DNA of 54,333 bases, counting the filler, from Jimgerdemannia flammicorona (lineage: Eukaryota): assembly GCA_003990765.1 (NCBI GenBank). It is 2 parts of 2 records of this genome, joined end to end, with 100 filler letters (N's around TTAATTAATTAA, not from the genome) between each part and the next. Parts side by side here need not be neighbours in the genome. Positions count along the whole stretch, not along the records: positions 1 to 27,132 come from RBNJ01000660.1; 1 more part is not named here. One strand, 5' to 3'. The translations under genes were made by a program, and so were the position numbers. The notes beneath the pieces are model-generated. The model searched no databases. It worked only from the letters and a program-made list of their open reading frames with translations, and had not been told where the DNA came from. This document shows, one piece after another, positions 9,548 through 44,520 of the stretch (the first letter of the stretch is position 1; the number at the start of each line of letters is the position of its first letter).

Positions 9548-10017
9548 TGCGCGTTAGTGGGTTGGCTTAAATTGCCATGTGTGATATCGGTTTCTTTAGG
9601 CCTACTTATTACATATTGTCACGTAGTGGTTGCTGAGTCCTTCAAATATGCCAGATTCTCTTCAAGGTGTATCTCTTAGACTAACTCAAGTTTGTTATAA
9701 GCAAGTTCTTATTGGAGTGCCTTCCTAAGGTCTTATAGTCCTCAAACTTCTTATCTTTAACTGTCTTGTTATCTCTTAGATTGCTTGCAAGGAAGTGTGT
9801 GTAGGTGAACTTGACTGACTTTATTTCAGAGGAAATAAGAGGGGTATTTATACAAAATATAATTCAATGGTTGCTAAGATATAAAGCTAAATATAAATTT
9901 CAATAATTAAAACTACTAAGTTCCAGGGTCAGTATTGATGATTGTACAGGTTCAGAATGCTGGTATTATTTAGTGTTACATCAAAATGCCAGTGCTGGAA
10001 CAATTTCGCATCACCTC

Positions 10018-10140
10018 AGAATACCAGTGCTGGTATTATCCAGTGTTACATGAGAATATTGGTGCTGGCATTATCCAGTGTTACATGAGAATACCAGTAC
10101 TGGCATTATCCAGTATTACATGAGAATACCAGTGCTGGCA
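10018..10140. repeat. 35-bp tandem repeat in LTR A with near-palindromic core ATACCAGTGCTGGTAT (also 18522-18622)
   Basis: Unit gagaataccagtgctggcattatccagtgttacat. About 4 units in the 3' LTR (the last split by an insertion) and 3 in the 5' LTR. Confidence 0.9.
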
Positions 10141-11326
10141 GGCCCTTTCTCCGCTACCTTACCAGTCACAAGGTTTGGTAGGCGACCTTCCGAGTCCCCT
10201 TTCCCCTAATATTACCCCCCTCTATCTCAGGTTGGTTTGCTGTGCCTGCAGGGGCATGGTGGGAGGAGGGCAATAGTGATGAGTTGCCCCTTTATCAGTA
10301 TCAGATCAGTACTTCCTCTACTTTTTCACAGATTCTGGTGCCTTCAGCTACATCTGGGGTGTGCCTGTTTTGGTGCGGTGTCTTCTTTCTTTTGCCGTCG
10401 CCAATAAGGAGTTGTTTCGGTGTATCTTAGGCTATGTAGGGAGTTGGCTGACCTTGGGCGTCAAGTGCTCAGTATAGGTTATCTGCAGGTCCTCGGTGCC
10501 TGTGGTGGGGCCCTCTGACTTTGGCGAGCTTCTCGGCAAGCGTGGTTCTGACATAGGTGACTGTTTTTCAGGTGATGTCAGAATGGGAGAGGAGATGGCT
10601 GTCACAGATAGGAGGAAGGGTGATTACAGTGAACCAGTAGAGTGCCAGGCTGGAGGTGGTCGTCGGGGCTGGAGTGAGTGCTGCTTTGGTAGGGCCTTTT
10701 GATTGGTGCGGTATGGTTAGGTGGTAGGTGTCACTCTTGGCTTCTTTTGGCAATTCGTGGGGTTGGGCCCCAGTCATCAGAGGGGGTCGGGGGGCCCGAG
10801 GCTACCCATTTCAGGCATCTTGGCTGTACTCAACTGGAACTGAGAGCTGATATGGCAATGTAATCGAGGCCTGCAGGCTTGAGTAGTGGGGTATTGGGGG
10901 TCTCCTCCCACCTCACATGTAAGTTCTCTACTCACCTCGACTGGGAGAACCAGGCCCTACCCACCATATTGTACTTTGATGAGAGTTTTTTCTTTGCCTG
11001 TCATTCTCTTTGGAGTGGCAGGGGCTATTCTATTCAGCTTGGACATGGCCTTGTACATACATTGGGTTCTCGGGTATGCGCTTTCAGTCGTTGGCATATG
11101 GCTGGGTTTCCCCTGGTGGTAGGGAGAGTATAGTATACAGAATGAGGTGTGGGCTACTTTACCCTACTGCATCTGGCATGGTTGAGCTACTGGACAATAG
11201 CTAGCCTAGGTTAATGGGGGGGCAGTGCTTGATGGGTGGTGGGGGAGGGTTTTGGTCTATATAGTCTAGATTCCCTTCCAATAAAAATCCGTGGGACATA
11301 GAGTCTGTTAAACAAAAAAAAAAAAA
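10141..11326 (+). mobile_element. Non-autonomous poly(A)-tailed retroposon, copy 1
   Basis: Absent from the other LTR. Has AATAAA at about 11279, an A-tail to 11326, and a flanking 19-bp duplication gagaataccagtgct(g/a)gca (10122-10140, 11327-11345). Second copy at 29867. Confidence 0.88.
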
Positions 11327-11366
11327 GAGAATACCAGTGCTAGCACTATCCAATATAATAAAGAAC

Positions 11367-12200
11367 TTAGAGCAGAAAGTTCAGGACCATGGGGGCTTCA
11401 TCATTATCATCATCATCACTGAAGGAGATGAGATTCACAAATTCATTGTTTTCATATGCTTCAATGTCATGTGGGATGACATCATCACCAATGACATCAT
11501 CACATTCAGTGGTGGTAGGAATAAGGAGATCTGAAGCTCTCCAGTTTATGAGGTTCTCTTCTACAAAATAAGAAACAAATGTGGAGTCTTGGAGAGGTCT
11601 AACCTGGATGCTTGGGCCTTGGAATACTGAGATCAATCCTTGTAGGAATTGGTCTGGGTTGTCCTGAAGGATGGAATACCAGAAGTTTTCTACTTCATCA
11701 CTGTTGAGGGTGATAGTGGACTGAGCTTCTGTAGCCATCCTGGCTTCTAGTGCATTGATACAGCAGGATGACAGATATCTGAAATCTGAGACTCTAACAT
11801 ACTCCAAGTTGGAGATCAATCATGGTGTATACCTGAAGATCTGATGGATCTTCTTAGCTATCTTTATTTTGCATATATCTATGAGGGTGGCATTTTGTAG
11901 CTCTTGAGTGCTGGTCTGTGGGAACTCCCAGCAGAGGAGGTTTCCTATTTCATACTCTTGCCATATTTAGAGACATTTGGTAGCAATGGTGATCCTTGTT
12001 TCCATTTTATAGCAGTAGAGGATAAAGTGATAAGGGTCTGTAGTACCCAGGTTGATACTGGGAATCCTTCTTGTATAGGTCCCCATAGCTCTTCTGATAT
12101 CTTGGAATATCCTTTCTTCAACTGAGATACCTTGATGGTTTCTTGACCTTGAGGTTTGGCAGGCAGCAGATATTTTATTTATGGTAAGTCTTTGAGCTAT
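11367..12200 (-). pseudogene. LTR-encoded (U3) ORF of family A, 278 codons, unknown function
   Basis: One unbroken frame IAQRLTIN...FQDIRRAMGTYTRRIPSINLG...DDDDNDEAPMVLNFLL with 2 internal stops. The same-length frame is present in the 5' LTR. Confidence 0.8.
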
Positions 12201-12416
12201 TTTGGGATTGGTGGTTCTTATTGATTGCTGCTACTATGGTTCCTTGATTCTTTTTTTTATATCCTTCAGGATGCTTATACTGTGGTCACAATGACTCACA
12301 GTTGGTCATCATTGCTCATCTTATATGTCATATAATCTTCTTGTGCTCTGATCTGGTGGCTTGCAAGGAAAGGCTGTCTCCTGTGCTAATGTCATCATTC
12401 TGGGGTCACTGTTACA

Positions 12417-12426
12417 TCTTCCTCCT
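12417..12426 (-). promoter_or_regulatory. Polypurine tract
   Basis: AGGAGGAAGA on the minus strand immediately before the 3' LTR. Confidence 0.85.
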
Positions 12427-12779
12427 GAATAAGAATCTTCTTGAGCATCCTTATTCATTAGTCTAGTCCTGAAAAATTTGCTGATCCCATAACCTCTGGC
12501 AAGGGATCAAAAAGTGGTATTTATGTGCTGATATCTTCTCTTTATATTTTGGTGTAATGATGAAGGGTCACTCTCTTCATATAGAGCAAGGGCCTGATTC
12601 TGATCTTGACCAATCAGTTGACAGTTCAAACTCCTCTGACTTCAATAGTCTCACAGATAAGTAGTTGCCAGTGCTGTATTCCTTAGAGAATGGTCCAGAC
12701 AGATAGCCTGCTGGTTACAGGACATGCTGTTATGATTCACAGACTAGAACCTCATGGGCAGTCATTACATTTTACTTCT

Positions 12780-15700
12780 CTTGTATAGGTTCATAGTACT
12801 TCTTGAGTCTGTTTCTGTATACCATAGTAGGCAGTATGGTCTCTGAGATTTTTCTAAGCCAGAAGGTAGTTCTCTTGATATCTTGCACATAGAAGGGTCC
12901 TTCCCATTTGGGCTCTAGTTTTCGCGACCATGAGGCTTCTATTATATTTCGATACAGTAGAACCTTTTCTCTGATTTAGATGGGTTCTAGGACCTTGTGA
13001 TTCTTTTCTGCATTCTTCCTTATCAGTACTTGTGACTTGGTGATGTAATCTTCAGCCTTCTTCCTGATTTGGTGTAGTCTCTGGATTTCTGCATCAACCC
13101 ATCTCCAAGTTAGGTCTAGATTTATGGCTGAGGTTCTATCAGAATCTTCTTCTCCAAAGAGCAGCTCTCTTGGGGTAAAGTATATGCTCTATGACTGTAT
13201 ATCTCATAGGACAGAGAGGGTGGTTGAGAGATAGTTATCCCAATTCTCATATGTCTCTGAGATCTTTGCTAGGATGTTCTTGAGGGTCTTGTTGGTTCTC
13301 TCTGTCTGTCTATTTCCTTGAGGGTGATATGCAGTGGTCTTGATGTGCTGGATCTTGTATTTCTGATATATTATCTCATAGAATCCATTGACAAATTCTG
13401 TGCCACGGTCTGTTGTGATTTGCTTTGGTGTCTTGTAGTGGTAGATAATTTCTCAGTACAGGAAGTTGGCTATAGAGAGGGCATTGGCTTCTTGTAATGC
13501 TCCTGCCTCTATCTATTTGGTGAAGAGGTCTATAATAACTATAATATAGCAGTTTCCTGATAGTGTTACTGATAGTAGTCCAATGATATCCATTGCGATG
13601 TAGTGGAAGGGGATAGGCTCAATTCTTAATAACTCAGGTGCCTGATCTTGCTGATCTTGTTTCTGTTTTTGGCACTTATCACACCCTTTGACAAATTGGT
13701 GCAGGTCTTCTTCCATCTTGGGCCACCATATAGTTCTTCTTACCTTGTCATATGTGTTGGTTTCTCCTAAGTGTCCTTGCTCATATACTTTCTTCATTAC
13801 TTGATACTTCTTATATTTGGGTATTATTAGCTTTCCTCTCTTTCTGAGTGTAGTGTTGTTTGGTTCAAACTGTTTTTAAGTCCAGTTGATGATGGTGGTT
13901 GTTCAGGGTTTGAGGTGGTTGGGCATCTTCTACTGCCCAAGATAGCTGATTAATCCATAGTATAGCTCCTTATTCATGTTGAATAGTCTTAATGGGGGTG
14001 TTTTGGGGTATCCTTGAGAGTGCATCAGCATTAGTGTTGGTCTTTTCTGAACAGTGCTTAATAGTATAGTCATACTCTTGCAGCCTGTAGATCTATCTGG
14101 CATATATTCCTTTGGAGTTCAGAGTGTGAAATAGCCAGGCAAGAGTGAAATAGTCTGTTTGAATAGTAAAGTATTTCTCAGCTAGGTAGTAGTGGAACTT
14201 GTCTACTGCCCAGACTACTGCTAAGCATTCAAGCTTGCATGACTCATAGTTCTGTTCTGCTCCATAGGTACCTCAGCTTACATAGGAGATGACATATTCA
14301 TATCCATCTTTCTTCTGAGCTAGGACTGCTCTAAGTCCTATAGTACTCGCATCTGTCTGCAGGATGAATTCTAGGTTCCAGTCTGGTCTTCTGAGGATGG
14401 GTGTTTGGGTCAACCTGGTCTTGAGTTCATTGAAGGTTTCTTGGTGCTTTTTGGTCCATTCAAATTTGATCTCCTTCTTCAGTAGCTCGTAGATAGGTGC
14501 TGCAATATTGGAGTATTTTTTGATGAACCTTCTGTAGTAGCTGGCCAGTCCAAGAAAGGTATGGACTTCTGTGGTTATTCTGGATCTCAGATAGGCTACA
14601 ACAGCCTCAATCTTCATGGGGTCTGTGTGGATTCTGGTCTGGTTGATGAGGTATCCTAGATAGGTGATTTCCTGAGCTGCAAACTTACATTTCTTGGGCT
14701 TGATGTAGAGGCCATGTTCCTTGAGCTTCTTGAGGATTAGCTATATGATTGACATATTCCTGTATAGTGTTGCTGAAGATGATCACATCATCAACATAGA
14801 CAAAGAGCTATTTTCCAATCTCATTGCTGAAGACTCTGTTCATCATTCGCTAAAAACTTGCTGGGGCATTGTATATTCCAAATGGCATTCACAGATAGAT
14901 ATAGATGGCATCAGGTGTGATGAAGGCTGATTTCTCACTGGCATCTTGAGTGAGACCAATCTGATGGAAGCCTGAGAACAGATCTAAGGTGGTGTAGTAT
15001 TTGGCTTCACTTCCAAGGGTGGTAAGGATTTCTTGAATATTTGGCAAGGGCTGCCTATCCTTCTTGGTGATGGCATTGAGTTTCCTATAGTCAATGCAGA
15101 GTCTTGGCATAAATTCTCCAGGCTTACTTCCTTTCTTCAGGGCAAGGACAATGGGTGAGGCCCAGGGACTGATAGCTTGCTTGATGATTCCAGCTTCTTC
15201 CATTTCCTTGAGTTCTGCTCGCAGCCACTCTCTGTAGGTAGGTGGTATGGGTCTGGCTTTCTGGTAGATGGGCTTGGTATCACTAGTGTCAACTTCGTGA
15301 TAGTACTTGGGTTCTTGGTTATGGATATCCCTAAAGTCTGTAGTAAGTACTCCTTTATTCTGATGCAGGATCTTGAGAAGTTGTTCCTCTAGGGGAAAGT
15401 TTTCTCCAATAGTATATGTGTGCTTGTTCTGGTCCTTGTCTTTCTTGTATTCAAGTTTGGTAATCTTGGTAGTGGCATAGGCTCCTCTTCCAGTAGATCC
15501 AAAGCCTTGTTCTCCTCTCTTGGTCTTGATGAGTTCAATGGCTTCTATGATCTTGGGCTTCTTGACTTTATAGATCAGCATCTGGCCAATCCTGTCATAC
15601 TTCTTGACTTTGAATGGGGTGATGTGGTTGTGATTTCTGACTATGAGGAAGATCTTACCAGTATAATCAGGGTCAATTACTCCTCCTTCAACTGAGATTT

Positions 15701-17990
15701 TGCTTTTGGCCAAACTGCTCCTGATTTTGATAATTCTGGCATAGTTCTCTGGCAGCTTAACTCCAATTCCAGTGCCAAGTAAGGTGGTGGTCTGTGGTTC
15801 AAGGGTAGCATCTTGAATGCTGACAAGGTCCATTCCTATGGCTCCTTCAGTCTTGTATTCTAGGATCTTGGCTTTAGGGTGAAACTTCTTAACCTTGAGG
15901 GTGATATCTGATTCTTATTCCTCCTCATCATCACTGTCAGCCTGAAGCTCTGGGGGCTGGTCATCTTCTTTGGCTTTCTTTTTTGCTTCAGCGGCTTCTT
16001 ACTCATATTTCTGTTGGCAGATTTTCCTGACTTCACTGATACAGGACCAGCAGTCATTCAGGTGTTCAGAGCAGTACATCCTAGTATCATGGGGGCATCT
16101 TTCTTGAGGGGCATAGCTATCAATGATCTTGTTGTACCACTACTCATCTGTGAGCTTGGGTGTCTTGTTCTTGTTCTTGTTCACTGAGTGCATGAAGACC
16201 TCTGTGTCCTCTTCATCTCCTTCCTCTATGTCTGGTAGGACTCCTTTATGGACATTGATAGAGACTCATATCTTTCTTCCTCTATAGTTGATCTGTATCT
16301 TCTGGGTATTGAGGTCAATGATGGCCTTGGCCTTGTGAAGCCATTGGTTGCTAATGAAGATGTTATAGTTGGTGGCGCTTGTAACAATCACATCTACTGG
16401 GATGGTAGCTCCTTCTATCTTGATGGGGACTTCTCGGATTTTGCCAAGGAAGGTAGCTCATGTACCATCTGCTATGACATAGACCATCTTGGTGGACTCT
16501 TCAATGTCCCAACCTAGATGGTCAATTGCCTTCTTACTCATAAGGTATCCTCCAGCACCAGTATCAATGATGGCATCAAAGATACAGTCTTTGATCTGGC
16601 AGAGGGTATAGGCTGATGTCTTGCACTGGTCTTCGGATTCTTCACCTGAGTTCTCAGATTCTTCTTGTGCATTGTAAGCTTCTACAATCTTGTACTCTTG
16701 ATTCTTGGCAGTAGTTGCAAGTCCTACTCTCAACTGCTGTCTGAAGATAGGGACTTTGGCTAGCTGTCCAAAGGTGGCATTGATCTTCTGTTCCTTGAGG
16801 TCCTTGTAGATACATATCATACTGGTGGATCTTGGTCTTGTGCAGCTTCTGTTCCTTCTTGCTTTTGCTTTCTCCTGAGACTGGAGTAGTGCCTTCTATG
16901 ATTTGGTGGACAGCTTTATCTAACTTTATGTCTTGATCAATCTCCTCGGATTGGGTCTACTTTGAATAGTGACAGCTAGAGTCTTCTTTGGTCTTCCAAC
17001 TGGCTTACTATTGCTCTTCTTATCATAGGGCTTGGACCAGGTTCTGGTACCTTCAGTAGCAGGATAGAATTCAAGCTCCTCATAGTATTCTTCATCATCA
17101 GTATCACCAATCTCCTCAATGACTACTGCATTGGTTTGTTCTCTAGTTCTGCTAGCATTACTTGGTTGGGCTTTACATCTTGTTTCAGTCATGCAACTCT
17201 TTGCATAGTGGCCTTCTTCTCTATATCTGAAGCATATGATATTGCATTCTTCTGTAGCAGCTACAAATCTCTGCACTGGTCTCCTGTTGATGCTTCAGAC
17301 TTCTCTAACGACATCACCAAGGTGTGCAGTCATCTCAGTGAACTGCTTGGCGAGTTCTTCCACTGGGTCAGCTTTGGCTATCTTGGGGGTAGATGGAGTT
17401 AGTTGTCTGTTCACAACTATAGCAGGTATGATACTAGTTGGCTTTGATGGCTCCATCTTGATGCCAGTTATTTTCTCCATTGAGTGTTCAGCAGAGTATC
17501 CTGGCAGTCCAATATCTCTGTGCAAAGACCACTTTCTGATCAAGGGTCAGTGCAGCTGGGGTAGACCAGATTGCTAGGGCAATTTCAGAGTGAACTCTTT
17601 TGAGGAAGGTTGAATCTGCTATTTGTTCCTTAAGGCAGTCATCATAGCCAGCCAAGACAATCTGGTAGTAGATTCAGATATAGAATGAGTTGGGATCTTC
17701 ACTAAGTCCCTAGCAAATAGTATTGAGTTGATCCTTGAGAGCTTGCTTGATCTCTTTGGTATAATATGTTGTTCTGAGAAAGACCTTCATGTTGGTAAGT
17801 TTGACTGTACCAGTATCAGCAATGGTGGCTGCATTGAACTTGTCTCTAGCAGGTCCTCTGAGGCTGACTGGTAGAAGGGCCAATTGTGCATCTACACCAA
17901 GGACTCATATAGTGGCGAATTGTTCAAAGTCTTCAATGAAGGTCAAGATTGACTCTTCAGTAGTATATCTATAGAATGTGGGGGGATGCA
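12780..17990 (-). pseudogene. gag-pol polyprotein of family A (stops and frameshifts)
   Basis: gag MHPPTF...FIEDFEQFA; zinc-knuckle relic CFRYREEGHYAKSC; protease AIIDTGAG; RT SPWASPIVL, LDLFSGFHQI, YVDDVIIFS; RNase H LQTDAS...DALSR; integrase GHLG...CDKCQ, TTDRGTEF, TTAYHPQ, KWEGPF. Confidence 0.95.
15489..15900 (-). pseudogene. dUTPase domain between protease and RT
   Basis: All five trimeric dUTPase motifs are recognisable: GMDL, IRSSLA, GVIDPDYTG, RIGQM, RGEQGFGSTG. Confidence 0.93.
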
Positions 17991-18097
17991 TTTCTATCTT
18001 ATCTTGAATTCTTGCAGAGGTGACTCTTGTAGTCAGGGTAGTTATTGTGGGGGTTGTTCATTTTTCAGCTTGAAAGTGAGGGATTCATCTTGAATCA

Positions 18098-18114
18098 CCA
18101 GCCAATGGGTACCA
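18098..18114 (-). promoter_or_regulatory. Primer-binding site (priming tRNA not identified)
   Basis: TGGTACCCATTGGCTGG begins 3 nt (ACT) after the 5' LTR end. Confidence 0.7.
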
Positions 18115-18631
18115 AGTTGTTATATAGTGGTCACTGAGTCCTTCAAATATGCCAGATTCTCTTCAAGATATATCTCTTAGACTAACTTAAGTTTGTTATA
18201 AGCAAGTTCTTATTGGAGTGCCTTCCCAAGGTCTTATAGTCCTCAAACTTCTTATCTTTAACTGTCTTGTTATCTCTTAGATTGCTTGCAAGAAAGTGTA
18301 TATAGGTGAACTTGACTGACTTTATTTCAGAAGAAATAAGAGGGGTATTTATATAAAATATAATTCAATAGTTATATACTAAGATATAAAGCTAAATATA
18401 AATTCCAATAACTAAAACTACTAAGTTCCTGGGTTGGTACTGATGGTTGTACAGGTTCAGGATACTGGTATTATTTAGTGTTATATCAAAATGTCAGTGC
18501 TGGAACAATTTTGTGTCACCTCAGAATACTGGTGCTGGCATTATCCAGTGTTACATGAGAATACTAGTGCTGGCATTATCCAGTGTTACATAAGAATACC
18601 AGTGCTGGTATTATCCAGTGTAACAAAGAAC

Positions 18632-19465
18632 TTAGAGCAGAAAGTTCAGAACCATGGGGGCTTCATCATCATCATCATCATCACTAAAGGAGATGAGATC
18701 CACGAATTTGTCATTTTTATATACTTTGATATCATGTGGGATGATGTTATTGCTGATGATGTCATCATATTTGGTGGCAGCAGAAACAAGGAGATCTGGA
18801 GCTCTCTAGTCTATGAGATTCTCTTTTACAAAATAAGGAACAAATGTGGGGTCTTGGTGAGATCTAACCTGGATACTTGGACCTTGGAATACTGAGATCA
18901 ATCCTTGCAGAAATTGGTCTGGGTTGTCCTGAAGGATGGGATACCAGAAGTCTTCTACTTTATCGCTGTTGAGGGTGATAGTGGACTGGGCTTCTGTAGC
19001 CACCCTGACTTCTAGTGCATTGATATGGTGGGATGATAGGTCTCTGAAATCTGAGACTCTAATATACTCCAAGTTGGGGATTGACTATGATATATGCCTG
19101 AAGATCTGATGGATCTTTTTAGCTGTCCTTATTTTGCATATATCCATAGGGGTAGCATCTTGTAGCTCTTGAGTGCTGGCCTATGGGAACTCCCGGCAGA
19201 GGAGGTTTCCTATTTCATACTCCTGCTATATTTAGAGGCATTCAGTAGCAATAGTGATCCTTGTTTCCATTTCATGGCAGTAGAGGATAAAGTGATAAGA
19301 GTCTGCAGTACCCAGGTTGATACTGGGAATCCTTCTTGTACAGGTCTCCATGGCTCTTCTGATGTCTTGGAACATCCTTTCTTCAACTGAGGTACCTTGA
19401 TGGTTCCTTGATCTTGAGATTTGACAGGCAGTAGGTATTTCATTTATGATAAGTCTTTGAGCTAT
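18632..19465 (-). pseudogene. LTR-encoded ORF of family A, second copy
   Basis: 834-nt frame colinear with 11367-12200: MFQDIRRAMETCTRRIPSINLG...EDFWYPILQDNPDQFLQG. Confidence 0.78.
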
Positions 19466-19468
19466 TTT

Positions 19469-20974
19469 TGTAAGAGGGTTGCTTTTTAGAGTAACCATTA
19501 CATAGTTCTGAAAGGGTTTTCTGGAAGTTCTGGATATTCTGGAAGATTATTTTCTTATGGTCAAGATCAATTTCATATAGAGTACATCCTCTATACTTAT
19601 TGATTTCAAGATCAGATTGATGTCTCAACCAAAGTCCTTTTTTGGACTAGTTCTGGATGTTCAGGATTTTCTGTATTTCAGAAAGTTCAAGAAACTAAGA
19701 CCAGCTTAGTTGAATTGGCATATCACTGTAGACAATACCCAATTAGAAAATTTCATGATGGAGTTAGGAGTGGAACCTAATAGAGAGTAGATTTACTTAA
19801 GAGTGGTTTATGGGTTATTAAATAGGTTTATTCGCTATTCATGATATTGCTATACTAGGAGTAGTTGTGTGAAGAGATATTGTGGGAAAGTATTGTGGAG
19901 AAGTATTCAGGAATGTTCTTATATATTCGAGTCTCAGATTCTGAGGTCTGGGGAAGGGGATATTTATACTAGTGAGGGGCTATCTGAACTATACTAGATA
20001 TGGATGTAGCACTAAGTACCTTGCTGAGTCGGAATGCAGTCATATAGTACAAGTGTGATCTGACATGTCAAGAGATCATCTGGCTGTTGAGTCAGTTCAC
20101 AGTTATGTCATACAAGACTAATCTAACTATACTATGACTGCTAAGCTATTTATAGGTTTAGGTACTATCTGGGTAGTCTTTGATGACATCACCATCAATA
20201 ACATCATTGCTGGCAAAGTCTGAACAGTTTTCTGACTTCTAATATTATCAGTTTCAAGATGTTGTCACTTCTATCTCTTACAAGATTAAGGCTGTCCTTA
20301 GTGGTAGTAGTTGTATAAGAATAACAGGTCTTGGTTCTCTTTTTTTTTGGTCTACTGGTGCATTTATAAGGACTGACCATTCTTATCTAGGGCAAGGGCT
20401 CTCAATGTCATGGCTGGGGGTTTGAACCTCTTGGAAATGATATTTTCTGTAATCCGAGGCAATTTCTAGTAGTAATATCTGTCATGTAGATGGCTTGAGA
20501 TTGGTTTTGATAATGTCAGCTTTCTTGAGTTCAGATGAAGTGTCCATCACTCTCCAATAGAGGTAATACAGATAGAGTGAATGGAGTTGTTCAAATGCAT
20601 TTTGTTTCTGCTAAGTAATGAGGTCTTATATAGTTACAGTGTATCTTGGTCTTGAGTTTGATAAGTGTAGTTCATAAACCTTTTGATGGGTGAGATAGGG
20701 TTCTTCTTGTCTCGATTTGAGTTTGGTACTTCTGGTTTCCTTTTGTAATAGTATAGTACACCAAACTAGTTTATAGAGGTTCAGAGTCAGTCTTATAGTT
20801 GTAGTACTTCTTCTAGTATTCTTATATCTTAGTAGTGGGTTCTCGTGCTTACTGGTGTATTTCATATAACTAGGTGATCTTTTCAGTAACTTGTTTTGTA
20901 GTCTCGCATATAGTTTTCAAATTAGTTCTGAGGATGTCATGCGATTTTGGTGGCTTAGAGGTTGTGTGCTTACA
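19469..20974 (-). mobile_element. Solo LTR of family B inserted in the 5' LTR of family A
   Basis: TG...CA ends and a 5-bp ATTTT duplication; the empty site in the other LTR has a single ATTTT. Reverse-complement homology to the ends of 24020-26081. Confidence 0.92.
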
Positions 20975-21284
20975 ATTTTGGGATTGGTGGTTCTTGTTGG
21001 TTGCTGCTACTGTAGTTCCTTGATTCTTCTTTTTATATTCTTCAGGATGCTTGTACTGTGGTCACAATGACTCACAGTTGGTCATCATTGCTCATCTTGT
21101 ATACTGTATGATCTTTTTGTACTCTGATCTGGTGGCTTGCAAGAAAAGGTTGTCTCTTGTGCTGATGTCATTATTCTGGGGTCACCATTATAATATATAA
21201 ATTTCTCATCTTTGGATCATTATTGATGAGTTTAGTTATGGTTCAAAATGACATATGTAGAATTATCTCTATATAAAAATAAGT

Positions 21285-22940
21285 ATGAAATTAGTATACA
21301 TTAAATCTACTATGGAACCAAAAAACTACAGTACTATTAGAAGTATTTTGAAAAAAGAACAGAGTGAAAAGATTGTACCATATATTTTCAAAGTACTTGA
21401 TACCAAAACTATTCAAGAATATTTGGATAAAGAGAGAATTACCTACAAAATCTACCAACAATTAGACAGTTTTAATAGAAGTATAAATATCTTTTACCAA
21501 GAAGATATTTCTAGACAAAGTCAAGGAGAATTAAATTCTAAAAAGTGAGAATTTCTAGAAACTTTCAAAGAACCAAAGAAAAAATAAAAATATAAAGAGT
21601 AAAGATATATAGAGGTAGTCCTATGTATTTTTTAATATATTGTATAGAAAAAATTTAACAAAACTAAACAAACTATACATAAAATATATATAGTAAATAA
21701 TAAAAATCTAACTAAATACAAGAAGACACTCTATTTTTTAGAACTTGGTTGCAGTTGTGGTTGCTCTACCAAAGTATCTAAAGAAGAGTTTGTCAAATTG
21801 TGTAAAGCCTTTTAAGTTCTTTCCAAGTCTGAACAAGACATCTTTTTAATAACTCAACTCAAGGCAATAGATAAGAGAGTTAATACTAGTCAATGCCTTA
21901 AGAATAGAGTTCATATCAATAAGAAAACTATCTATTATTGAGATTATAATACATCTCTTTACCAGAAGACCTATTTGAATATACTAGAAATTAGTTGAGC
22001 TCATTTTGAAAAATATCAGAAATTATTTACTGAATAATGGTCTTCTATTATAGCTCTATAGTAATACTAAAAAGATACTTAAGTAAAAGACCAAAATAGT
22101 TATTAATAAAAATATGACTATTATAGTAAAGAATTTTCTTTTGAATTATGCTGAAGTTCATGGCCTATCTAGTCTAGTAAGAAATATTAATTGAGTCACT
22201 CAATCAATTATCTTTTTATCTGCAGAAATAAGCTATAAATCTATTTACTATAATTTTTTAGCTAGTCTAGAAGATAGTACTCTGTACATACTCAAATATG
22301 ATATGTTTTGCAAATTATAGCATCAACTGACCCTATATATCCAAATTATAAGCCCCTGAATTAATTTATATAATACTTATTAATACTTATAAAATAATTT
22401 ATAATTTAAAGCTTATAAAGAAAAAGAGGCCTAGGATTTATTAAAGAAATATAAAGAGCACCTAGCCAAAGCCAAGTTAGAATAAAACTATTACAACAGA
22501 AATACCAGTTAGTAGAAGAATAGAGAAAGTTAATTGATTAAAATTATTCTATCATTATAGCAAAAGGTAAAATACTATATTATAGTATTGATATAGTTAC
22601 TCATTATAGTTATGACTGAGCTCAGAATATCTATATATCTCATTCAGATCAACAGATTGATAAAGTATATTTGTTTGATATCTAAAATAAAGTAATATGA
22701 GAGTAAATTAATTATATACTGAATGAGAATGAGCTTATCAGAAAGGGTCTAAATAGTGTACTTAGTCTGATTTTTGATAGAGTTAAGCAATTGAATAAAG
22801 GTAAAAAGTATCTAAAAATTACTTATAATAATATAGGTAAACAAAATAAAAATATTATTATACTTTAGTTTTACCTATACTTGGTAATTGCTGGTTATTA
22901 TAAAAGTATTGAATTAAACTTCATAGTTCTGAGATATATG
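21285..22940 (+). pseudogene. Heavily decayed Sola-like DDE transposase relic
   Basis: Recognisable blocks GCSCGC, EQDIFL, YAEVHGL, FLSAEISYKSIY, HYSYD*AQN, NYILNENE, ITYNNIGKQNKN (for DNxGGQNKN) and ELNFIVLRY (for FMVPGH). Confidence 0.7.
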
Positions 22941-24307
22941 TATGAATCTGAGAAATAGATTTATCATAAATTTAGATATAGAATAAGTTTGGCTATAAAT
23001 TATAGGTATTTCTGCTTCTTTTATTTATATTTTTATAGCTTTTTTGTTAAGTTCTCATCTAATTACTAAATCAGTAGCAAATGATTTAGATTTCATTTTT
23101 TATATAAGTTCTTAGCATACTTCTTTAATTTGGTCTCAGGTTTCTTAGTTAATAGTATTGATATTATTAGATAAATGATTTTTGATAGAGATTACTATAT
23201 TTCCTATTTTGCTATAATTTGGTAACAATTTTGCTTCTCTTAGCAATAACAGTATTATTTTCTGTTGCTTAAAAAACTTTATTACTTTCTCAGCTCTTTT
23301 TTGAGAGAAAGCTTTTCATAAAGCTCTTTTAATTCCTAAACTTCTATAATTTTCTTTATATTTAAGAACAATTCACATATAAAAATAGAGTGAGTTTTAG
23401 ACAGTAATTGGTCCTATTGATATACCAATTTTGTAACCCTCTAGATTACATATCTTGTTAACTTTTCTACAATATTCTAAAGTATTAGCAAAATTTTTAA
23501 TCATTCTTATCTAGTAATTTCTTTAAAATTTTCAATATAATATCTAGTACATAGTGCTAAATGACCTCTAGTATTTGGTCTTAAAACAATACCAGCAGTT
23601 ATCCTATCTTTTGTAGAGATTTAAGATTTAAGCTCTTTTTTTTAAGAAGTTTTATTTTGTTATATATATATATATATGACAAACTATTTTACTTTCTTCT
23701 ACACTTTTTGGACAAATATAACTTGAAGTATTATCTAGTTTTCAAGAAAAGTGTTTATTTTGCTCACCTCTTTTAATTTTTTTATAACAATTCTAACATT
23801 GAGAGCATTTATATCCTCAACTGTCTTTATAAGTGGTAATATCTCAATTAAGTATGATTTGATATTAATTATAATAAATAGTTATTCTATCTCATCTACT
23901 ACTATCTTTTTGATTAATAATTCTTATTCTGAAAGATCAATCAAAAATTTCTTTATTTTTACATTTTTGTAAGACTTGATTAAAGAACTTTATTTTATTT
24001 CTTTCTCAATCTTTATTAGTATAAGCGCACAACCTCTAAGCCACCGAAATTACACGTCACCCTCTGAACAAGCCACTGAGATCACACGCGACCTCCAAAC
24101 AAATCTGGAAATCACCTGCTTGATCACAAAGCTGAGTCAAACTGAAGTCACAGCGCATAAAGCTGAGTCAATACGAAGTCACGGAACACAAGATCTACAC
24201 AAACGGAACATTACCAATCAGGACCAAATGCATATATACTGAGCACCAAGACGCGTCAAGTCAGAGAACCAAAACAAACAACAACCACAACTTCCAAACA
24301 CACAAAC

Positions 24308-25405
24308 ATGACCACTGAGATCTACAACTGCATCCGCACTGACATTTGGAATGCCATTGACAACCGAGCTACACCCCCTCTGCCCCTCATGAATATCCAT
24401 AGCCTGGCCCCCCTCTACTTCGTGGAAGCCCGATGGAATGCCCTGAACATGCTTAGCGAGGCCCACCGAATCGGACAAATCTCAAGCTACTACCAGATCA
24501 GCCGCCTCTTGGAAGACATGGTCGAACACCACCACGATACAGACATTACCCAGATGTCTCAACACCAGAAGCTCATCGCCCGCAAACATCGAGAACTCTT
24601 CTATGAGTACAATACCTTTATTCTCCGCCTCCGAGTTACTACTAGCGAAATGGTTGCTACCCTGTCCTACGGCCAAATTGATGACATAATACAAGAAATC
24701 AACCACAAGTACCTCGAGTATGTCGAAACTACAGACAGAACCTTCCCACACCCCGATGACCATATCCTGCAAATGCCTCAAGTCGGATATGCCATGAAGG
24801 ATGTCTACGATATAATCCACTTCGATGAAGATGAAGCAGAAGACAACGACCCCTCTGACACCGATATGACCTCTAGCCAAGGATCTCTGCCAACCCTAAT
24901 CACTCCACCAACCTTGCCAATGAACTTACAACAGTTCATAACTACATACGAGACTTATTGAGACAATGACCACTGGCATGAATACCAACCCGCATTCACC
25001 CCCGATTACTTCAACTACAATGAAGAGACCGGAGAACACAACCTGTACCTTCAGATAACCCTCGAGATTGAACCAACCACTCCACCACCCAAGTACGAGC
25101 GACTTGAATCACAGCCGCCAGCATACTATAACCCCGCAACTCATAGTGCTGTAACCTATAGAAGGTACGCAGACAGTAAATCCGATGAAAGCGAAGACAA
25201 TACACCCATCCTTCACCCACCAATACCTTACCCAGCATATGAAACAGACGATGCTATTCTGTGGGACGGAGACGAAGTCCCAATGTATTACTACCTCAGC
25301 CAACAAGGAGAAGTAATCCATGAACCACTCTTCCTAGATGACTACTTCATCAGAGATGATGCAATTGATGGTGATGTCATCGAAGACTACCCAGATAGTG
25401 CCTAA
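24308..25405 (+). CDS. LTR-encoded (U3) ORF of family B, 365 codons with one internal TGA
   Basis: The 217-aa ORF continues in frame past TGA 24959-24961 for a further 147 sense codons to TAA 25403-25405. It has an acidic, proline-rich C-terminal half and lies entirely within the LTR. Confidence 0.8.
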
Positions 25406-25903
25406 ACCTATAAATAGTCTAGCAGTCATAGTATAGATAGATTAGCCTTGTACGACGTGACTGTGAACTGACTCAGCAGTCAGGCGATCTCTTGACATGT
25501 CAGATCACACTTGTACTATGTGACTGCATTCCGACTCAGCAAGGCACTTAGTGCTACATCCATATCTAGCATAGTCCAGATAGTCCCTCACTAGTATAAA
25601 TACCCCCTCCCCCAGACCTCAGAATCTCAGACTTGAACAGACAAGAACATTCCTGAATACTTCCCCACAATACCCCTTTATACAAATACTCCTAGTATAG
25701 CAATATTATGAATAGCAAATAAACCTATTCCATAACCCACAAACCACTCTTAAGTAAATCCGCTCTCTGTTAGGTCCTACTCCTAACCCCATCATGAAAT
25801 TTCCTAATTGGATATTGTCTGCAGCGATACACCAATTCAACTAAGCTGGTCTTAGTTTCTTGAACTTCCTGAAATACGGAAAATCCTGAACATCTAGAAC
25901 TAG

Positions 25904-27132
25904 TCTGAAAAAGGACTTTGGTTGAGACGTCAACCCGATCTTGAAATCAATAAGCGTAGAGGACGTACTCTATATGAAATTGATCTTGACCATAAGAAAA
26001 CAGTCTTCCAGAATATCCAGAACTTCCAGAAAACCCTTCTAGAACTACGTAACGGTCACTCTAAAAAGTAACCCTCTTACAACTTGGTAGCAGTGGTTTA
26101 CAATCCAATTCCACTTCAAGACGCTTCCTCACCCTACAACAAACCCCTCTGAGAATTCCTACAAGTTGGTATAAAGCCCAACCTCTGAACTGGAATTTAT
26201 CCTGAACCATCTGACAATCTGGAGAGAATTGAACCTGACGTACAAGGACAATTTGACCTCCACACCTGCAACAAGTGGGATAAACTTCATTCAAAGAAAG
26301 AAGTACTCAAGTTAAACCAGCAAATAGGCGAAACCCTATTCACCGAACTCCTTGCACTACACCCAGCAAGTCAAGACGAAGAAGGTCTTATTGAAGCCTT
26401 CTTTACTCTTCTCAACAAGAGTTTTGTCAGCTCCACAAATCCGAGCGACCTAGGACAACCAGCAGCAGTCTTTCTAGCCTTAGTTCCTCACGAAGCCCAA
26501 GCCTCTGTAGCCAAGTGGCTCAACTCTACCGACTATCACCGTACCAGGACCAAGACTGCCTTATACTACCGATTCCAGAACAGCAAGGCCCGCCATATTC
26601 TTAAGGAAGAAGCAAGAGAAGCCCTTCATCAACTACCTGACCCTGAACCAGAAGCAGGCCCTGCCACTGCCCTACCTGAATCTGAAACCAATACCGAACC
26701 AGAACTTGACTTTGAATTAAGTCCATCTGAAATCAGATATACAACTGATTCCGTCTACTTTGACGCCGAGCAAACCCAATTACACGGGGACCAAACCGAA
26801 GAGGAGGAGGAGTATCTCAGTGAATTCGATCCCGGATACACCACCGAAGGAGACGCACCTCCATCAGGCCAGAACACACCGACACAGCAACAAACAGCTA
26901 TTTATCAAGCCCTCACTCCAGACCCACAGCTATTACTCCAGCAACTTACACAGACTCAAAGAACACCCTCACACTCTGCACCAGTACCTCAAGTAGTACC
27001 AGTAACACCACTACCAGTAGTCCAACCGCCTCCAGTAAACAACATGGCGAACCAACAGATTCTAGACCTCACCGCCCAAGTGGCTATAATGGCAGCAACC
27101 ATTACTGCTTTAGCCGAACAGACCCGACCTAC
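25904..27132 (+). pseudogene. Long reading frame starting inside the LTR and leading into probable gag
   Basis: About 409 codons with only three stops (26069, 26150, 26186). First ATG at 27044 (MANQQILDLTAQV). Confidence 0.65.
26085..26093 (+). promoter_or_regulatory. Primer-binding site, initiator tRNA-Met type
   Basis: TGGTAGCAG 3 nt after the LTR end, matching the complement of the eukaryotic tRNAi-Met 3' end. Confidence 0.7.
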
Positions 27133-27231
27133 NNNNNNNNNNNNNNNNNNNNNNNNNNNNNNNNNNNNNNNNNNNNTTAATTAATTAANNNNNNNNNNNN
27201 NNNNNNNNNNNNNNNNNNNNNNNNNNNNNNN
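27133..27231. other. Assembly gap / artificial contig linker
   Basis: N run with an embedded TTAATTAATTAA (27177-27188), which gives stops in all six frames. Confidence 0.95.
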
Positions 27232-28588
27232 NTTTTTTTTGGAGGCTGTACCACCAGCAATACACTAGACTTGATCCAAACAACTTATATCTACAACCAT
27301 CTACAATTTTCCTCCTTCGTTTTTTATTCCCATCCGGACCTTTCGCGAGAGCGCCTCAATCAACCGGACACTCTATCTTACTAATTCCCCAATCCGGGCT
27401 CCCCGGATTTTCTTGTACGACCACTCCGCTCACATCCGGACGGGGGCCTGGGGCCCAGGAAGAGACTTGCATGTAAAAAAAATAAACAAAAAGTTGATGT
27501 CTTTTCCCGGCAAGGGATATCTTGGCAAGCGCTACTCTTTGCCTATGCCAAGGATTGGCTAGCCTTCGTGCCAAGAAGATTGCCTTTTTGACATTTATAT
27601 ACGTACGGGGTGAGTGTATTGGAGATATATAACAAAGTTCGTGAATGCGCTGCAGCCTGTCAACAGTCGGGCTTGGGATCATCGGCTAAACTCGGCGGTG
27701 TAGAGGCACGTGCTCAGAAATCGACAAGCGAAATCCTTGTGTAACCCTACCATTAGCCATTAACGGAAGTCTGCTACGCGCTTAATAATTAAGCACGTAG
27801 AAGCTCCCAGTGGACTTCTTCCGCAAGGATTACTTAGAGGAAGCTTACATATCATAGTGGAATTATCTAGTAAATGGCAAGAACATGTATAAATAAGAAG
27901 AGGTTGGGGATGACAATAAAGCAGTTCTGAAATCTTGAATAAGTAAGCGCATATTGCCAAGGATCGGATATCCAAGGAATATCACATACAACAGGTCGCT
28001 TTTCAGGCTCCCCTGGTGGCCTTCAGACACGTTTCTTAGTAAGATCCTTAGCATACATCCCCAACAAATTCCTTCTATTAACCGCTCATATCCACGCCCT
28101 CTTTATAATCATTTTCCTATTGATAATTTTTGTGCAACCTTCACAGGCAGCCCTACCACGTGGCAGGGACGCCAAGACAGCGCCTTCGGAGATGTCCAAA
28201 CCTTCGACTCAGTGTCCGCGCCGACCACGTAGCGCAAATCTCCGTCACTTTTTCTGGAGTAATTCCGAAATTTGGAAGGCGAACTTAGTGCCTTTTTCCC
28301 ATTTGCCATTTGGGCCCACTCGCTTGGGGCCGTGAAAAATATGCCCGCCAAGCTGACGTCACGCTCCGTCAGGTCCTTTGTTGACGCCCGGATGGCTTGA
28401 GTCGGACTTTGATAGACAGCATTGGCCATTGCTAGTCAGCACCATCACCAAAGATAAACTGGTGCTCCTTTGCAGAGGCAGCCCCATCAGGTAGAGCCTG
28501 GCAAACTCACAGGTGCATTATGCTATTATATAAGGTAAAAAGATGTTAAGGATGTGAGTTTGAGAGTATGGTGAGAACATTGTCAAAC

Positions 28589-29133
28589 CTATTTATAAAT
28601 AAATACATCTTCCAACAAAGCTTGAAGAAAGATCCTGTGGGCCCCATTCACATCTCTGTCAATGTTGAGGCTACACCTCTTGCAATGGAAGATCTTTTTT
28701 CCTTTAAGCTTCTGATTTATCTACTCACACTAGCTATATGTCTTACTTGTGTATACCTCTGATATGAAGCAAACATGTTTCCCAAACTCTTCTGCCTTTG
28801 ATACCAGCCTCTCTCTAAACCTTGTATGTGCTCATATCATTATCTTGCATACTGTCCTACTGCTGATCTTCCAGTATCTAGTCTTTCTCTCCATCTTACT
28901 GCTATTGAATCTGAGGATAATAATGATATCAAATATCTGGACCAGTCACAGTGCAGCCTTCTTGTGAACTCAGATTGTGGATGCAGAATCACAATCTCAT
29001 CTATCTGTATCTTATAGAGTTATACTTTCTAGTAGATATCCTATACAAGAGATAAGATTATTAAGAGTAAGATATAAGTGAACTAGTTTCTGAGTATCTT
29101 TGATATCTATCTTATCACAGCTATGTATTAGAG
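28589..29133 (-). pseudogene. Fanzor2/TnpB-family RNA-guided nuclease relic (C-terminal half)
   Basis: VHKKAAL*LVQIFDIIIILRFNSSKM...TVCKIMI*AHTRFRERLVSKAEEFGKHVCFISEVYTSKTYS*CE*INQKLKGKKIFHCKRCSLNIDRDVNGAHRIFLQAL: RuvC-II, zinc ribbon and DRDxNGA RuvC-III motifs. Confidence 0.9.
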
Positions 29134-29445
29134 TAGTGCTCTCAATGAATTGAATCAAAGGTCCTATTTAATTTGAGATTTGATTCAAACCCTATTTTTC
29201 AAAATATAATAACTCAATGAAAACATGTTCAAATTTAATAATCTTTAGCTTATTAGATTTCTCTATATAAGAGAAATCCAATAAGCTAAAGATCATTAAT
29301 TTTGGACATATTTTTATCAAGTTATTATATTTCAAAAATAGAATTCAAATTAGATCTTTAATTTGATTTTATTCAAACTTGATTTGAATTGAAAAAACTT
29401 CAATTTAATTTAATTTGAATTAATTCAATTTATTTGAAAGTACTA
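29134..29445. mobile_element. MITE / foldback element
   Basis: Imperfect TIRs (tagtgctctcaatgaattgaat and attcaatttatttgaaagtacta) and an internal hairpin of about 170 bp centred near 29267. No target duplication seen. Confidence 0.75.
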
Positions 29446-29699
29446 GTTTGAGAGTTATAGTTATAGTTTTGATTTATTATAGTTCTTTGTTTTGATATAC
29501 TATATGTTTAGTATATATGCTTTTGGTCCTAATTGATAAGGTTCTATTTTCATATATCTTATATTCTATAACTTTGAGTTTTCTTAGCTTCATAATCTAT
29601 AACTTCAGTTTGACTTAGCTTTATAATCTTATATATAGTTTTCAGATTTGTTCTAAGAATAATGTATAATTTTAATAGCTTAGAAATTATATACTTACA
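29446..29699 (-). repeat. Hypermutated fragment of a family B LTR (first ~250 bp), preceded by a purine tract
   Basis: The reverse complement aligns to 24020-24298 with mostly C>T/G>A changes. AAAAAGAAAGAAG lies just upstream on the minus strand, suggesting a 3' LTR. Confidence 0.8.
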
Positions 29700-29866
29700 A
29701 CTTCTTTCTTTTTAGTTTTCAATATTCTTGTCAAGTTTTTCTAATTTGATCTAGTATTGTTATACTATTTGGATGGTTAAAAGTCTAGTAATGTCCTTTT
29801 TTCTCAGAAAGTAGTATGTTTATAGTAATATATTAAATTTATATATTAAAGAGTTATAAGTTCACT

Positions 29867-31026: not shown

Positions 31027-31096
<70 letters not shown>
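29867..31096 (+). mobile_element. Non-autonomous poly(A)-tailed retroposon, copy 2
   Basis: Colinear with 10144-11326 over its whole length. Has AATAAA and a ~67-nt A tail. Confidence 0.88.
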
Positions 31097-31098
<2 letters not shown>

Positions 31099-43300: not shown

Positions 43301-43983
43301 CATATCAATCATAGTAAGAAACTCTCAAGCAGATAGAAGATTGCAGCAGGTTTGAGGATAATGAGTGCTATAGTAGTCAATATAAATATTGTGATCAAGA
43401 GCATCAAGAATCATGCTTAAGAGAGAGTAGTTGGGGAAATCTCAGAAAGCCAACTTCCATACCAAGGCCTGAAGGGGCAGAGCTAAAAGAGGAAATTGAA
43501 GAAGGATATGATGAACAGACAGGAAAGAGTCAGTCAGTAGAAATGACAACTGAGTGTTAGGAGGAGTTGGTGGCAGACAGATGGCTGGTAGAAGATTGGT
43601 TGTTGTGGACAAGAAAGAAGAAAAGCTCAGCAATGAAAGGAGTAGACTAAAGTACACCCTAACTGGATTCTAGCTTATACAAGAGAATATACCATGGCCA
43701 GTGAAATTGCACTGTATACATCTATGATCGAATAGGCAGTCTTTCTGTGAGCAGCTATGAGAAGACAAGTCAGAAGCTCCTGACCAGATAATATAATTGA
43801 AAGCTCAGTACACTTCAGTAGAAGGAGTGCTATATGAAGTACTGGATGAACTGGCACAGATCTGAGGAGTCTTTGAGGTAGAGCCAATGATGGAACCCAG
43901 GGGCCAGGAGGTAAGTTGGTGGTGGCCTAAGAGATATAGTGACATTTTGCCATCATGTACAGCCCATGTAGTGCAGCCCTCAC
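40400..43983 (-). mobile_element. Second, diverged and decayed tyrosine-recombinase retroelement (5'-truncated)
   Basis: YTGHSFCIGTATDAVIAGFTDYEIQVL (YR); VKIDIADIFQHILVHPTNWELLSFHW (RT); RNase H relic. The left boundary is approximate. Confidence 0.85.
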
Positions 43984-44369
43984 CAGTACTCAGGTTGAGG
44001 CTAGGGGTCCTTCTTGTACAGGTCCTCATGACTCTTCTGATGTCTTGGAACATCCTTTCCTAGATTGAAGGGCCTTGATAGTTCCTGGACCTTGAGGTTT
44101 GGCAAGTGGCAGGCATTTTGTTTATAGTAAATCTTTGGAACTATTTCTGTGAGTCTTATTTGAGTTGCTGCTACTACAGTTTCTTGATTCTTCTTTTATA
44201 TTCCTTATGATGTCTATCTTGTAGTCATAATGACTCACAGTTGGTCATCATTGCTCATCTTGTAGCCTGGATGAGTCATGCCATATGATCTTCTTGTACT
44301 CTGATCTGGTGGCTTGTAAGGAAAGACTGTCTCCTGTACTGATGTCATCATTCTGAGGTCACTGTTACA
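43984..44369 (-). repeat. Truncated family A-like LTR (U3 end)
   Basis: Aligns to about 12040-12416, ends gtcactgttaca and is followed by ATAT. Encodes MFQDIRRVMRTCTRRTPSLNL. Confidence 0.88.
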
Positions 44370-44520
44370 ATATTTAGAATTCTATCAAATCAGTCTCACA
44401 GAAGTAATAAGTGAGAAGTCAGCCTTTATCACCTCAAACAGAACCTATATCTACCTATGAATACTATTTGGAATATACAATGTACTAGTAAGCTTCTAGT
44501 GAATAATAAATAAAATCTTC
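44370..44520 (+). pseudogene. Gypsy RT fragment related to family A
   Basis: FYQISLTEVISEKSAFITSNRTYIYL*ILFGIYN, compared with FHQIGLTQDASEKSAFITPDAIYIYL*MPFGIYN in element A. Confidence 0.75.

Follow-up and report, generated by a model that had tools for sequence, protein, structure and literature searches.

The window analyzed here is a 54,333-nucleotide stretch of DNA from Jimgerdemannia flammicorona (GenBank assembly GCA_003990765.1), in which two parts from two records are joined by 100 filler letters and positions 1 to 27,132 come from RBNJ01000660.1. It carries the long terminal repeats (LTRs) of two retrotransposons, elements A and B, and within these LTRs lie long coding frames, which we call open reading frame (ORF) A and ORF B. 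ORF A occurs in both LTRs of element A, sense to the element, with none in the element interior, and ORF B lies in the 5' LTR of element B. The three frames, i.e., the copy in the 3' LTR of element A (A1), the copy in its 5' LTR (A2), and ORF B, contain few stops compared with dinucleotide shuffles: 2 in 277 codons for A1 (17.4 +/- 4.0 in the shuffles), 5 in 277 for A2 (16.2 +/- 3.7), and 1 in 365 for ORF B (20.0 +/- 4.2), and for each of them 0 of 1000 shuffles was as open as the observed frame. No frameshift interrupts any of the three over 268 to 365 codons, and the other five frames of the same segments contain 5 to 31 stops each. A1, A2, and ORF B are decayed copies of real protein-coding genes. 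An earlier, sequence-only reading of this DNA had announced a 365-codon ORF in LTR B; the frame exists at 24308-25405 on the plus strand, but an in-frame TGA splits it into a 217-amino-acid (aa) ATG ORF and a 147-aa in-frame continuation, and it is not a clean ORF. The coordinates given for ORF A (11367-12200 and 18632-19465) were right, but the frames lie on the minus strand, hold two and five stops, and lack a start ATG, the start position reading ATA in both window copies (12173-12171 in the 3' LTR) versus ATG in intact relatives; translated on the plus strand, both regions show many stops. The further fragment announced near 44000 was recovered, its coding match spanning 43979-44137 with 68% identity over 53 aa (tblastn).

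Both ORFs lie inside LTRs and sense to their elements, as the sequence-only reading had proposed. For element A, the repeats flank a minus-strand region encoding protease, dUTPase, reverse transcriptase (RT), RNase H, and integrase, and the order protease, RT, RNase H, integrase between two LTRs places the element in Ty3/gypsy (Metaviridae). The marks of bona fide LTRs, i.e., TG..CA-type termini, a target-site duplication, and a primer-binding site (PBS) or polypurine tract, were found; the 5' LTR of element A ends in ACA, followed by AC and a PBS-like site (CA-AC-TTGGTACCC; AC-TTGGTACCCATTGG). For element B, the limits of the LTR at 24021-26081 are fixed because a solo LTR flanked by a target-site duplication, B-short, has both its termini. 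A PBS-like site follows position 26081, and the similarity of contigs from the public sequencing run X2 breaks off at 24022, the start of LTR B. LTR B ends in CA, and the succession of AC and PBS-like site matches element A. The claim of two gypsy families stands for element A, with its gypsy pol domains, but no pol domain was found beside LTR B: a Pfam scan of ORFs of at least 45 aa across 19400-34800 returned no domain and hence no pol adjoining it, and tblastx of the region downstream of LTR B against the element A interior returned no similarity. A 314-aa frame, the first in the interior of element B and possibly gag, has neither a Pfam match nor similarity to the element A interior, and the links between the two elements are the LTR, the PBS-like site, and common LTR motifs only. 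As had also been claimed, LTRs A and B have no obvious similarity at the DNA level by blastn, short common motifs aside. The features are collected in Table 1.

Table 1. Positions of the LTR gene copies, the LTRs, and the associated features of elements A and B in the window.
Feature	Position	Strand	Remarks
ORF B	24308..25405	+	365 codons; decayed copy; single in-frame TGA at 24959-24961 (codon 218)
ORF A, 3' LTR copy (A1)	11367..12173	-	268 codons plus stop; TAA at 11969-11967, TGA at 11822-11820
ORF A, 5' LTR copy (A2)	18632..19438	-	five in-frame stops, at codons 69, 71, 86, 118, and 211
LTR A-like third-copy fragment	43979..44383	-	LTR 5' end and first ~55 ORF codons; blastn 79%; hidden Markov model (HMM) match
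LTR A, 3' copy	9617..12416	-	begins TGTAAC; polypurine tract AGGAGGAAGA before; interrupted by 1183-bp repeat
LTR A, 5' copy	18118..21192	-	interrupted by solo LTR B-short; PBS-like TTGGTACCCATTGG after
TATA-1 of LTR A (ATATAAAAAAAA)	12251..12262	-	~85 nt upstream of ORF A start position
Conserved leader, LTR A 3' copy	12192-12175	-	same motif immediately 5' of ATG in L001 and L002
35-nt tandem array, LTR A 3' copy	9958..10140	-	5.2 copies, between ORF A stop and TATA-2
35-nt tandem array, LTR A 5' copy	18523-18630	-	3.1 copies
TATA-2 of LTR A (TATAAATACCCC)	9841..9852; 5' LTR copy 18342-18353	-	AATAAA after
Element A interior	12417..18117	-	Ty3/gypsy; protease, dUTPase and RT, RNase H, integrase zinc-binding domain (Pfam)
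Element A aspartyl protease	16461-16895	-	Pfam, weak
Element A dUTPase and RVT_1	14892-15914	-	Pfam
Element A RT_RNaseH_2	14276-14740	-	Pfam
Element A Integrase_H2C2	13516-13875	-	Pfam
LTR B, 5' LTR of element B	24021..26081	+	2061 bp; starts TATAAGCGCACAACC, ends ...CTCTTACA
TATA-1 of LTR B (CATATATAC)	24231..24239	+	~70 nt upstream of ORF B start; putative promoter
TATA-2 of LTR B (TATAAATACCCC)	25595..25606	+	presumed element core promoter
PBS-like site, element B (TTGGTAGCAGTGG)	26084..26096	+	two bases past LTR B end, AC between
First internal open frame, element B	26189..27130	+	314 aa, possibly gag; then runs of N
Solo LTR B-short	19469..20974	-	1506 bp; TGTAAG...CTTACA ends; exact 5-bp AAAAT duplication

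Open relatives of both ORFs exist outside the window. A word-indexed search of 5.8 billion clustered proteins returned one relative of ORF B, P0001, and a profile search of 1.84 billion representatives returned two, P0001 and P0003, both fragments. P0003 (128 aa) begins at the same methionine as ORF B and is 91% identical to it; P0001 (247 aa) is 65% identical over 250 aa, has a tryptophan opposite the window TGA, and has the same C-terminus and stop. For ORF A, five proteins were found in the first search and nine in the second, among them P0004 (247 aa), P0009 (271 aa), which begins opposite the ATA at 12173-12171, and the distant P0011 (342 aa), 36% identical over its whole length (E 8e-49). 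Moreover, a metagenome DNA pattern scan with the A family, which is independent of gene calls and has no requirement for an open frame, found two loci, L001 and L002, each with a complete Met-to-stop ORF: L001 encodes 291 aa and L002 (69-1037) encodes 323 aa. The same kind of scan with the B alignment gave 325 pattern matches, 0 of them confirmed. Intact A-type relatives show 36 to 79% identity, and the encoded length in intact relatives is 247 to 342 aa for the A type and about 365 aa for the B type.

These comparisons bear on the purifying selection that the sequence-only reading had proposed. The proportion of differing synonymous sites (pS) exceeds that of differing non-synonymous sites (pN) both between A1 and L002 (pS 0.73, pN 0.30) and between L001 and L002 (pS 0.77, pN 0.38), and differences between lineages fall most often on the third codon position, less often on the first, and least on the second; synonymous sites are saturated between lineages and non-synonymous sites are not. 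The numerical dN/dS ratios are soft since the two LTRs of element A, a presumably neutral pair, already give 0.43, a value explained by the fact that 106 of their 108 differences are transitions. To judge from the sequences, the persistence of complete frames at 36 to 56% identity is a stronger argument for selection than the ratios. Purifying selection is thus supported for the family, kept open over deep divergence (36 to 79% identity, with pN below pS), but not for the copies in the window, all of which are broken.

The way in which the window copies decayed is legible in their lesions. All eight in-frame stops (two in A1, five in A2, one in ORF B) align with a Gln or Trp in the nearest intact relatives. 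Over the aligned part of the element A LTR pair (11328-12203 versus 18593-19468), 108 of 876 bases differ, and the C/T differences fall chiefly at CpA and CpC and seldom at CpG, a transition pattern that looks like repeat-induced point mutation (RIP)-like or deaminase-type hypermutation rather than ordinary drift. In contigs of other copies, too, most differences from LTR B are C>T and G>A. The Gln/Trp placement of the stops is the pattern expected of the transition-only process that separates the LTR pair, and we propose that the same hypermutation would have inactivated the window copies. At codon 118 the stop is TGA in one element A LTR and TAG in the other, and the same position was therefore hit twice. 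That element A was already ORF-dead at its insertion, with lesions shared between its LTRs, had been considered and was withdrawn: the codon-118 stops differ, nearly all differences of the pair are transitions, and parallel hits are likely.

The arrangement around the genes is recurrent. A TATA-like box lies 55 to 85 nt upstream of each ORF, and a leader motif stands directly 5' of the start in A1, L001, and L002. A second TATA-like motif, the 12-mer TATAAATACCCC (TATA-2), is identical in both copies of LTR A, in LTR B, and in L002, and is followed by AATAAA, ~25 nt past it in LTR A and L002 and ~120 nt further on in LTR B; in LTR A, the 35-nt array fills the space from the ORF stop to TATA-2. 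We read TATA-2 as the putative core promoter of the element and AATAAA as its candidate poly(A) signal. Both genes would then lie in U3, between the LTR start and TATA-2, with the U3/R boundary placed from the motifs, and ORF B is assigned to U3 because this presumed core promoter lies downstream of it. The sense orientation and U3 placement given by the sequence-only reading thus agree with our analysis, the position inside the LTRs being confirmed and the U3 part following from the TATA-2 motif downstream. A transcript started at the upstream TATA would end within the same LTR, so that the LTR could be a self-contained transcription unit besides being the end of an element. In the L001 lineage, to judge from the sequence that follows its stop, the gene may adjoin the LTR upstream rather than lie inside it. 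The L001 contig also carries a 28-nt motif on either side of the ORF (170-197 and 1481-1508), 24 of 28 positions being identical and 0 of 300 shuffles reaching the score; its polypurine-like run and TGTAA region lies at 1252-1280.

Solo LTR B-short shows how exchangeable the interior of these LTRs can be. It is inserted in the leader of ORF A within the element A 5' LTR. Similarity to LTR B is restricted to positions 3-50 of B-short (83%) and 768-1507 (89%); the middle is unrelated to LTR B and non-coding, with 10 to 17 stops per frame. Only the last 18 codons of ORF B are left in it. The suggestion that solo LTRs retain the gene was thus not upheld in the window, of which this is the sole solo LTR (19469-20974). 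B-short could transpose despite lacking the gene, which is therefore dispensable in cis. Beyond the window, short contigs from four public runs, at 80% likeness or more, fill 30, 29, 29, and 23 of 30 bins, none of them spanning the LTR, and closely similar LTR copies are also present in contigs of soil-metagenome runs. Run X16, possibly an RNA run, has a high depth figure at 25664-25915. Twenty sequencing runs were listed (best share 0.33), none recorded as RNA.

Whether ORF A and ORF B belong together is answered differently at the pairwise and at the profile level. The 57-aa alignment on which the sequence-only reading had based a common family is not significant pairwise (BLASTP E 0.27 and 0.82), and its Smith-Waterman score is reached by 321 and 362 of 1000 shuffles. 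In profile searches, however, the family appears. An HMM of eight A-family sequences matches P0003 at 17.7 bits (E 1e-7, Z=1 as a single comparison), a score reached by 0 of 5000 shuffles of P0003 (maximum 13.6), and the window ORF B at 9.9 bits (E 2.3e-5); the match runs from A positions 4-127 to B residues 12-133, and reversed sequences score below 0 (-0.2 for reversed P0003). The signal rises to 19.4 bits (E 3e-8; shuffle maximum 13.1) with a nine-sequence A profile and to 22.4 bits (E 3.6e-9) with a profile of the three most divergent A members. Reciprocally, P0011 (E 2.5e-4) and P0010 (E 4.6e-4) come up at collinear residues in a search with the B HMM, together with a weak second match at an acidic DD-x-I-x-DD-x-I motif near the C-terminus. 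The profile-profile alignment that had been proposed as a check improved from E 0.4 and a probability of 0.14% in a first hhalign run to E 0.0092 with P0011 alone and to E 0.0052 after more divergent rows were included, where it covers 117 columns and begins at DIRRAM/DIWNAI, but its probability is 7% at best; reversed alignments scored 13.7 and 14.1 against 27.8 observed. On these profile matches, A and B are probably homologous, though distantly, over their first ~120 residues or more. That the A or B frame could be gag was rejected, no other match to the A and B profiles being present when the window was translated in all six frames.

Altogether, we consider it likely that a conserved gene family resides in the U3 of the LTRs of related retrotransposons and that the window holds three mutated copies of it, a pair from family A and a single one from family B. 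Several points weigh against this reading. All three window copies are broken and hence non-functional now, B-short transposed without the gene, and the proteins recovered from databases are open by construction, which is an ascertainment bias; the method of Nei and Gojobori (NG86) is biased under extreme transition bias, as the dN/dS of the element A LTR pair already tells. The DNA context outside a fragment is available for four copies only (LTR A, LTR B, L001, and L002), and among them the L001 stop is followed directly by a polypurine-like run and TGTAA; the roles of the TATA motifs, the poly(A) signal, and the U3 assignment all rest on motifs read by eye. With regard to the relationship of A and B, besides the pairwise scores and the low hhalign probability, 2 of 152 hhalign column shuffles beat the observed score (unexplained outliers at 130 to 135, the next being 26.1), and the window ORF B reaches only 7.9 to 11.7 bits across profiles, with 1 of 5000 shuffles attaining 9.9. 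Pfam, PDB, and fold searches and the low-confidence models back no particular function.

Part of this evidence would be explained if A and B were two unrelated passengers, i.e., if each had gained a different coding segment in a variable U3 and their N-terminal resemblance were convergent or driven by composition. The pairwise and hhalign results fit this explanation, as does the exchangeable U3 interior, LTR B and B-short being alike at their ends only. Nevertheless, we consider it unlikely in view of the HMM scores of 17.7 to 22.4 bits, unmatched in 5000 shuffles and negative for reversed sequences, of the collinear reciprocal matches and the gain in signal with more divergent profile members, and of the placement of both genes, at similar distances from the LTR start and upstream of an identical TATA-2 12-mer. 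Two other explanations accept the gene but not its place or its present state. The gene could be a 3' accessory ORF of the usual kind, situated past pol and ahead of the polypurine tract, with its LTR location owing to a secondary shift of the LTR boundary. The end of the L001 ORF invites this thought, its stop being followed by GGAGGGAGGA and TGTAA, which resembles the polypurine tract and LTR start of element A; but L001 is a contig of 1535 bp, L002 has the TATA-2 motif and AATAAA downstream of its gene like LTR A, element A has one copy of the gene in each LTR, the 5' one lying ahead of the PBS, and LTR B is a 5' LTR with the PBS downstream. We rate this alternative as improbable. The gene could also be a dead relic that once coded for a protein, e.g., a captured host gene, and is no longer under selection, the open relatives being the youngest copies. 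Every window copy is indeed broken, open database proteins are expected by construction, and ORF B has just two fragmentary relatives. Complete frames at 36 to 56% identity (P0011, L001, L002, and P0009) with saturated synonymous sites speak against it, as do the intact frames of both loci found at the DNA level, and no host-type homologue was found among the 1.84 billion representatives or the 5.8 billion clustered proteins; a relic thus appears very improbable.

Returning to a conserved U3 gene family, its products have features in common. The acidic tails that the sequence-only reading had noticed in both proteins hold throughout: the last third has a net charge of -17 to -25 in all five members examined; that of the first 45 residues is +1 to +8 for the A type but -1 for B. 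The conserved N-terminal and central part is predicted to be mostly helical. No Pfam family was found at E 0.1 to 1 for nine members or pieces, only noise far below the cut-offs, and no DNA-binding family among the members searched; a PDB sequence profile search gave no match at E of 5 or less. An AlphaFold2 (AF2) model of B residues 1-217 from the single sequence had a predicted local distance difference test (pLDDT) score of 40.8, a model from a 13-row alignment reached 50.2, and the best Foldseek match in the PDB (E 0.25, TM 0.15) is meaningless. In the ESM Atlas, P0004 had a best score of 0.86, and the L002 ORF scored 0.91 to an unnamed 61-member cluster of 244-aa proteins with 159 common features, which may be the LTR gene family's own cluster.

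We propose a tentative model in which every ORF-bearing LTR would be a complete gene, with its own promoter, a conserved 250- to 365-aa protein, and the LTR poly(A) signal; this would hold for the 5' and the 3' LTR of every element alike and perhaps for solo LTRs in which the ORF survives, and the product would act in trans as a "public good", either as a transactivator or as a suppressor of silencing. We give this model as a whole somewhat less than an even chance. A factor supplied in trans fits since the gene is dispensable in cis and conserved across diverged LTR families, and a trans-acting factor serving the element family is what the sequences most likely point to. As to its activity, a transcriptional activator or adaptor could be suggested as a speculative first guess, with the acidic tail, dotted with hydrophobic residues, as its active part and the repeats in the LTR itself as a possible target; an antagonist of host silencing would be the next, a more doubtful one.

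The closest known parallel is the sag gene of mouse mammary tumor virus (MMTV), which, as far as the sources covered describe it, is likewise a protein-coding ORF in sense orientation in U3 and so is duplicated in both LTRs. The LTR genes described here share this U3 location but do not belong to the Sag family of Pfam, and sag is a vertebrate retrovirus gene whereas the present family belongs to retrotransposons. The reading frame of MMTV sag begins 5' of the polypurine tract, and its expression relies on spliced RNAs or on RNAs from an internal promoter. In contrast to this layout, the whole gene, with its own putative TATA box, lies within the LTR here. Human immunodeficiency virus (HIV) nef and foamy-virus bel/tas encode accessory trans-acting proteins at the 3' end that reach partly into U3; they overlap the LTR only in part, unlike the present genes, which lie wholly inside. 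Foamy tas encodes a transactivator, which has an acidic activation domain, and is driven by an internal promoter, a mechanism that would resemble our guess for the LTR gene family; Pfam and PDB profile searches gave no homology to known accessory proteins.

Additional ORFs (aORFs) of plant LTR retrotransposons are located in the internal region, whereas the genes here, apparently fungal, are inside the LTR; an extra ORF between the LTRs is not found in element A, and L001 is ambiguous in this respect. These aORFs, which extend beyond gag-pol, are mostly of unknown function and lineage specific, and the portion of the review covered contains no wording such as ORFs "in", "within", or "inside the LTR" (PMC7264820). 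Among fungi, the crapaud LTR subfamilies of Podospora have exchanged sequence in the 5' half of the LTR with the rest in common, the same pattern as LTR B versus B-short, and the part of that source covered mentions no LTR ORF (PMC10787394). In the literature surveyed, covered in part and with Repbase, subscription journals, and supplements outside its scope, "LTR ORF" refers essentially only to MMTV-type cases, and no gene inside a retrotransposon LTR was found.

LTRs are usually treated as non-coding control regions, masked by annotation pipelines, and their coding capacity is ignored in the classification of transposable elements. If the reading proposed here holds, the family would represent a new class of transposable element accessory gene, conserved and LTR-internal, and the first LTR-borne accessory gene family described outside retroviruses; solo LTRs keeping the ORF, should such exist, would be potential sources of protein. 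It would further offer a natural example of gene dosage scaling with element copy number and a handle on the dealings between element and host through transactivation or anti-silencing. A retrovirus-like "complex" organization, as in MMTV sag or foamy tas, could then arise in non-infectious elements. With no Pfam match, solved relative, or usable model, the protein family is a candidate for a new fold or function.

Several other features of the window deserve mention. The dUTPase domain of element A (Pfam E 2.8e-26) lies between protease and RT, an arrangement already described for some fungal gypsy elements in the portion of the source covered (PMC2864245), and a 141-bp piece at 44380-44520, beside the LTR A-like fragment, is 73% similar to this dUTPase region in inverted orientation. 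A 1183-bp repeat at 10144-11326 sits in the 35-nt array of the LTR A 3' copy, and its second copy at 29867-31047, 19.7 kb apart, is 88.5% identical; the repeat has no Pfam match, contains no member of the LTR gene family, and is unrelated to LTR A. The block at 21200-24020, which separates the element A 5' LTR from LTR B, is very AT rich (GC 0.23 at 22001-24000); it includes small tandem repeats, likewise AT rich, at 22360-22408 and has neither ORFs nor family matches. Two runs of 44 N (27133-27176 and 27189-27232) directly follow the first internal frame of element B, whose interior is unreadable across them. At the left end, a fragment of the host gene for the mitochondrial ATP synthase B chain occupies 15-335 (+), and a 358-aa frame at 5245-6318 (+) with GCIP N- and C-terminal domains is a host gene as well; the repeat-rich region starts past ~9.6 kb. 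The compactness of the host genes, together with the element type, suggests a fungal origin. The segment 34200-41500 (-) is GC rich, with many long minus-strand frames and a weak RVT_1 match at 36822-37247 (E 5e-4), and has 64 to 69% similar segments in the 47- to 54-kb region (47280-48700 and 52000-54290); these are probably further, older retroelements. Repeats of 150 bp occur at 34283-34764, 39707-39860, and 47282-47435.

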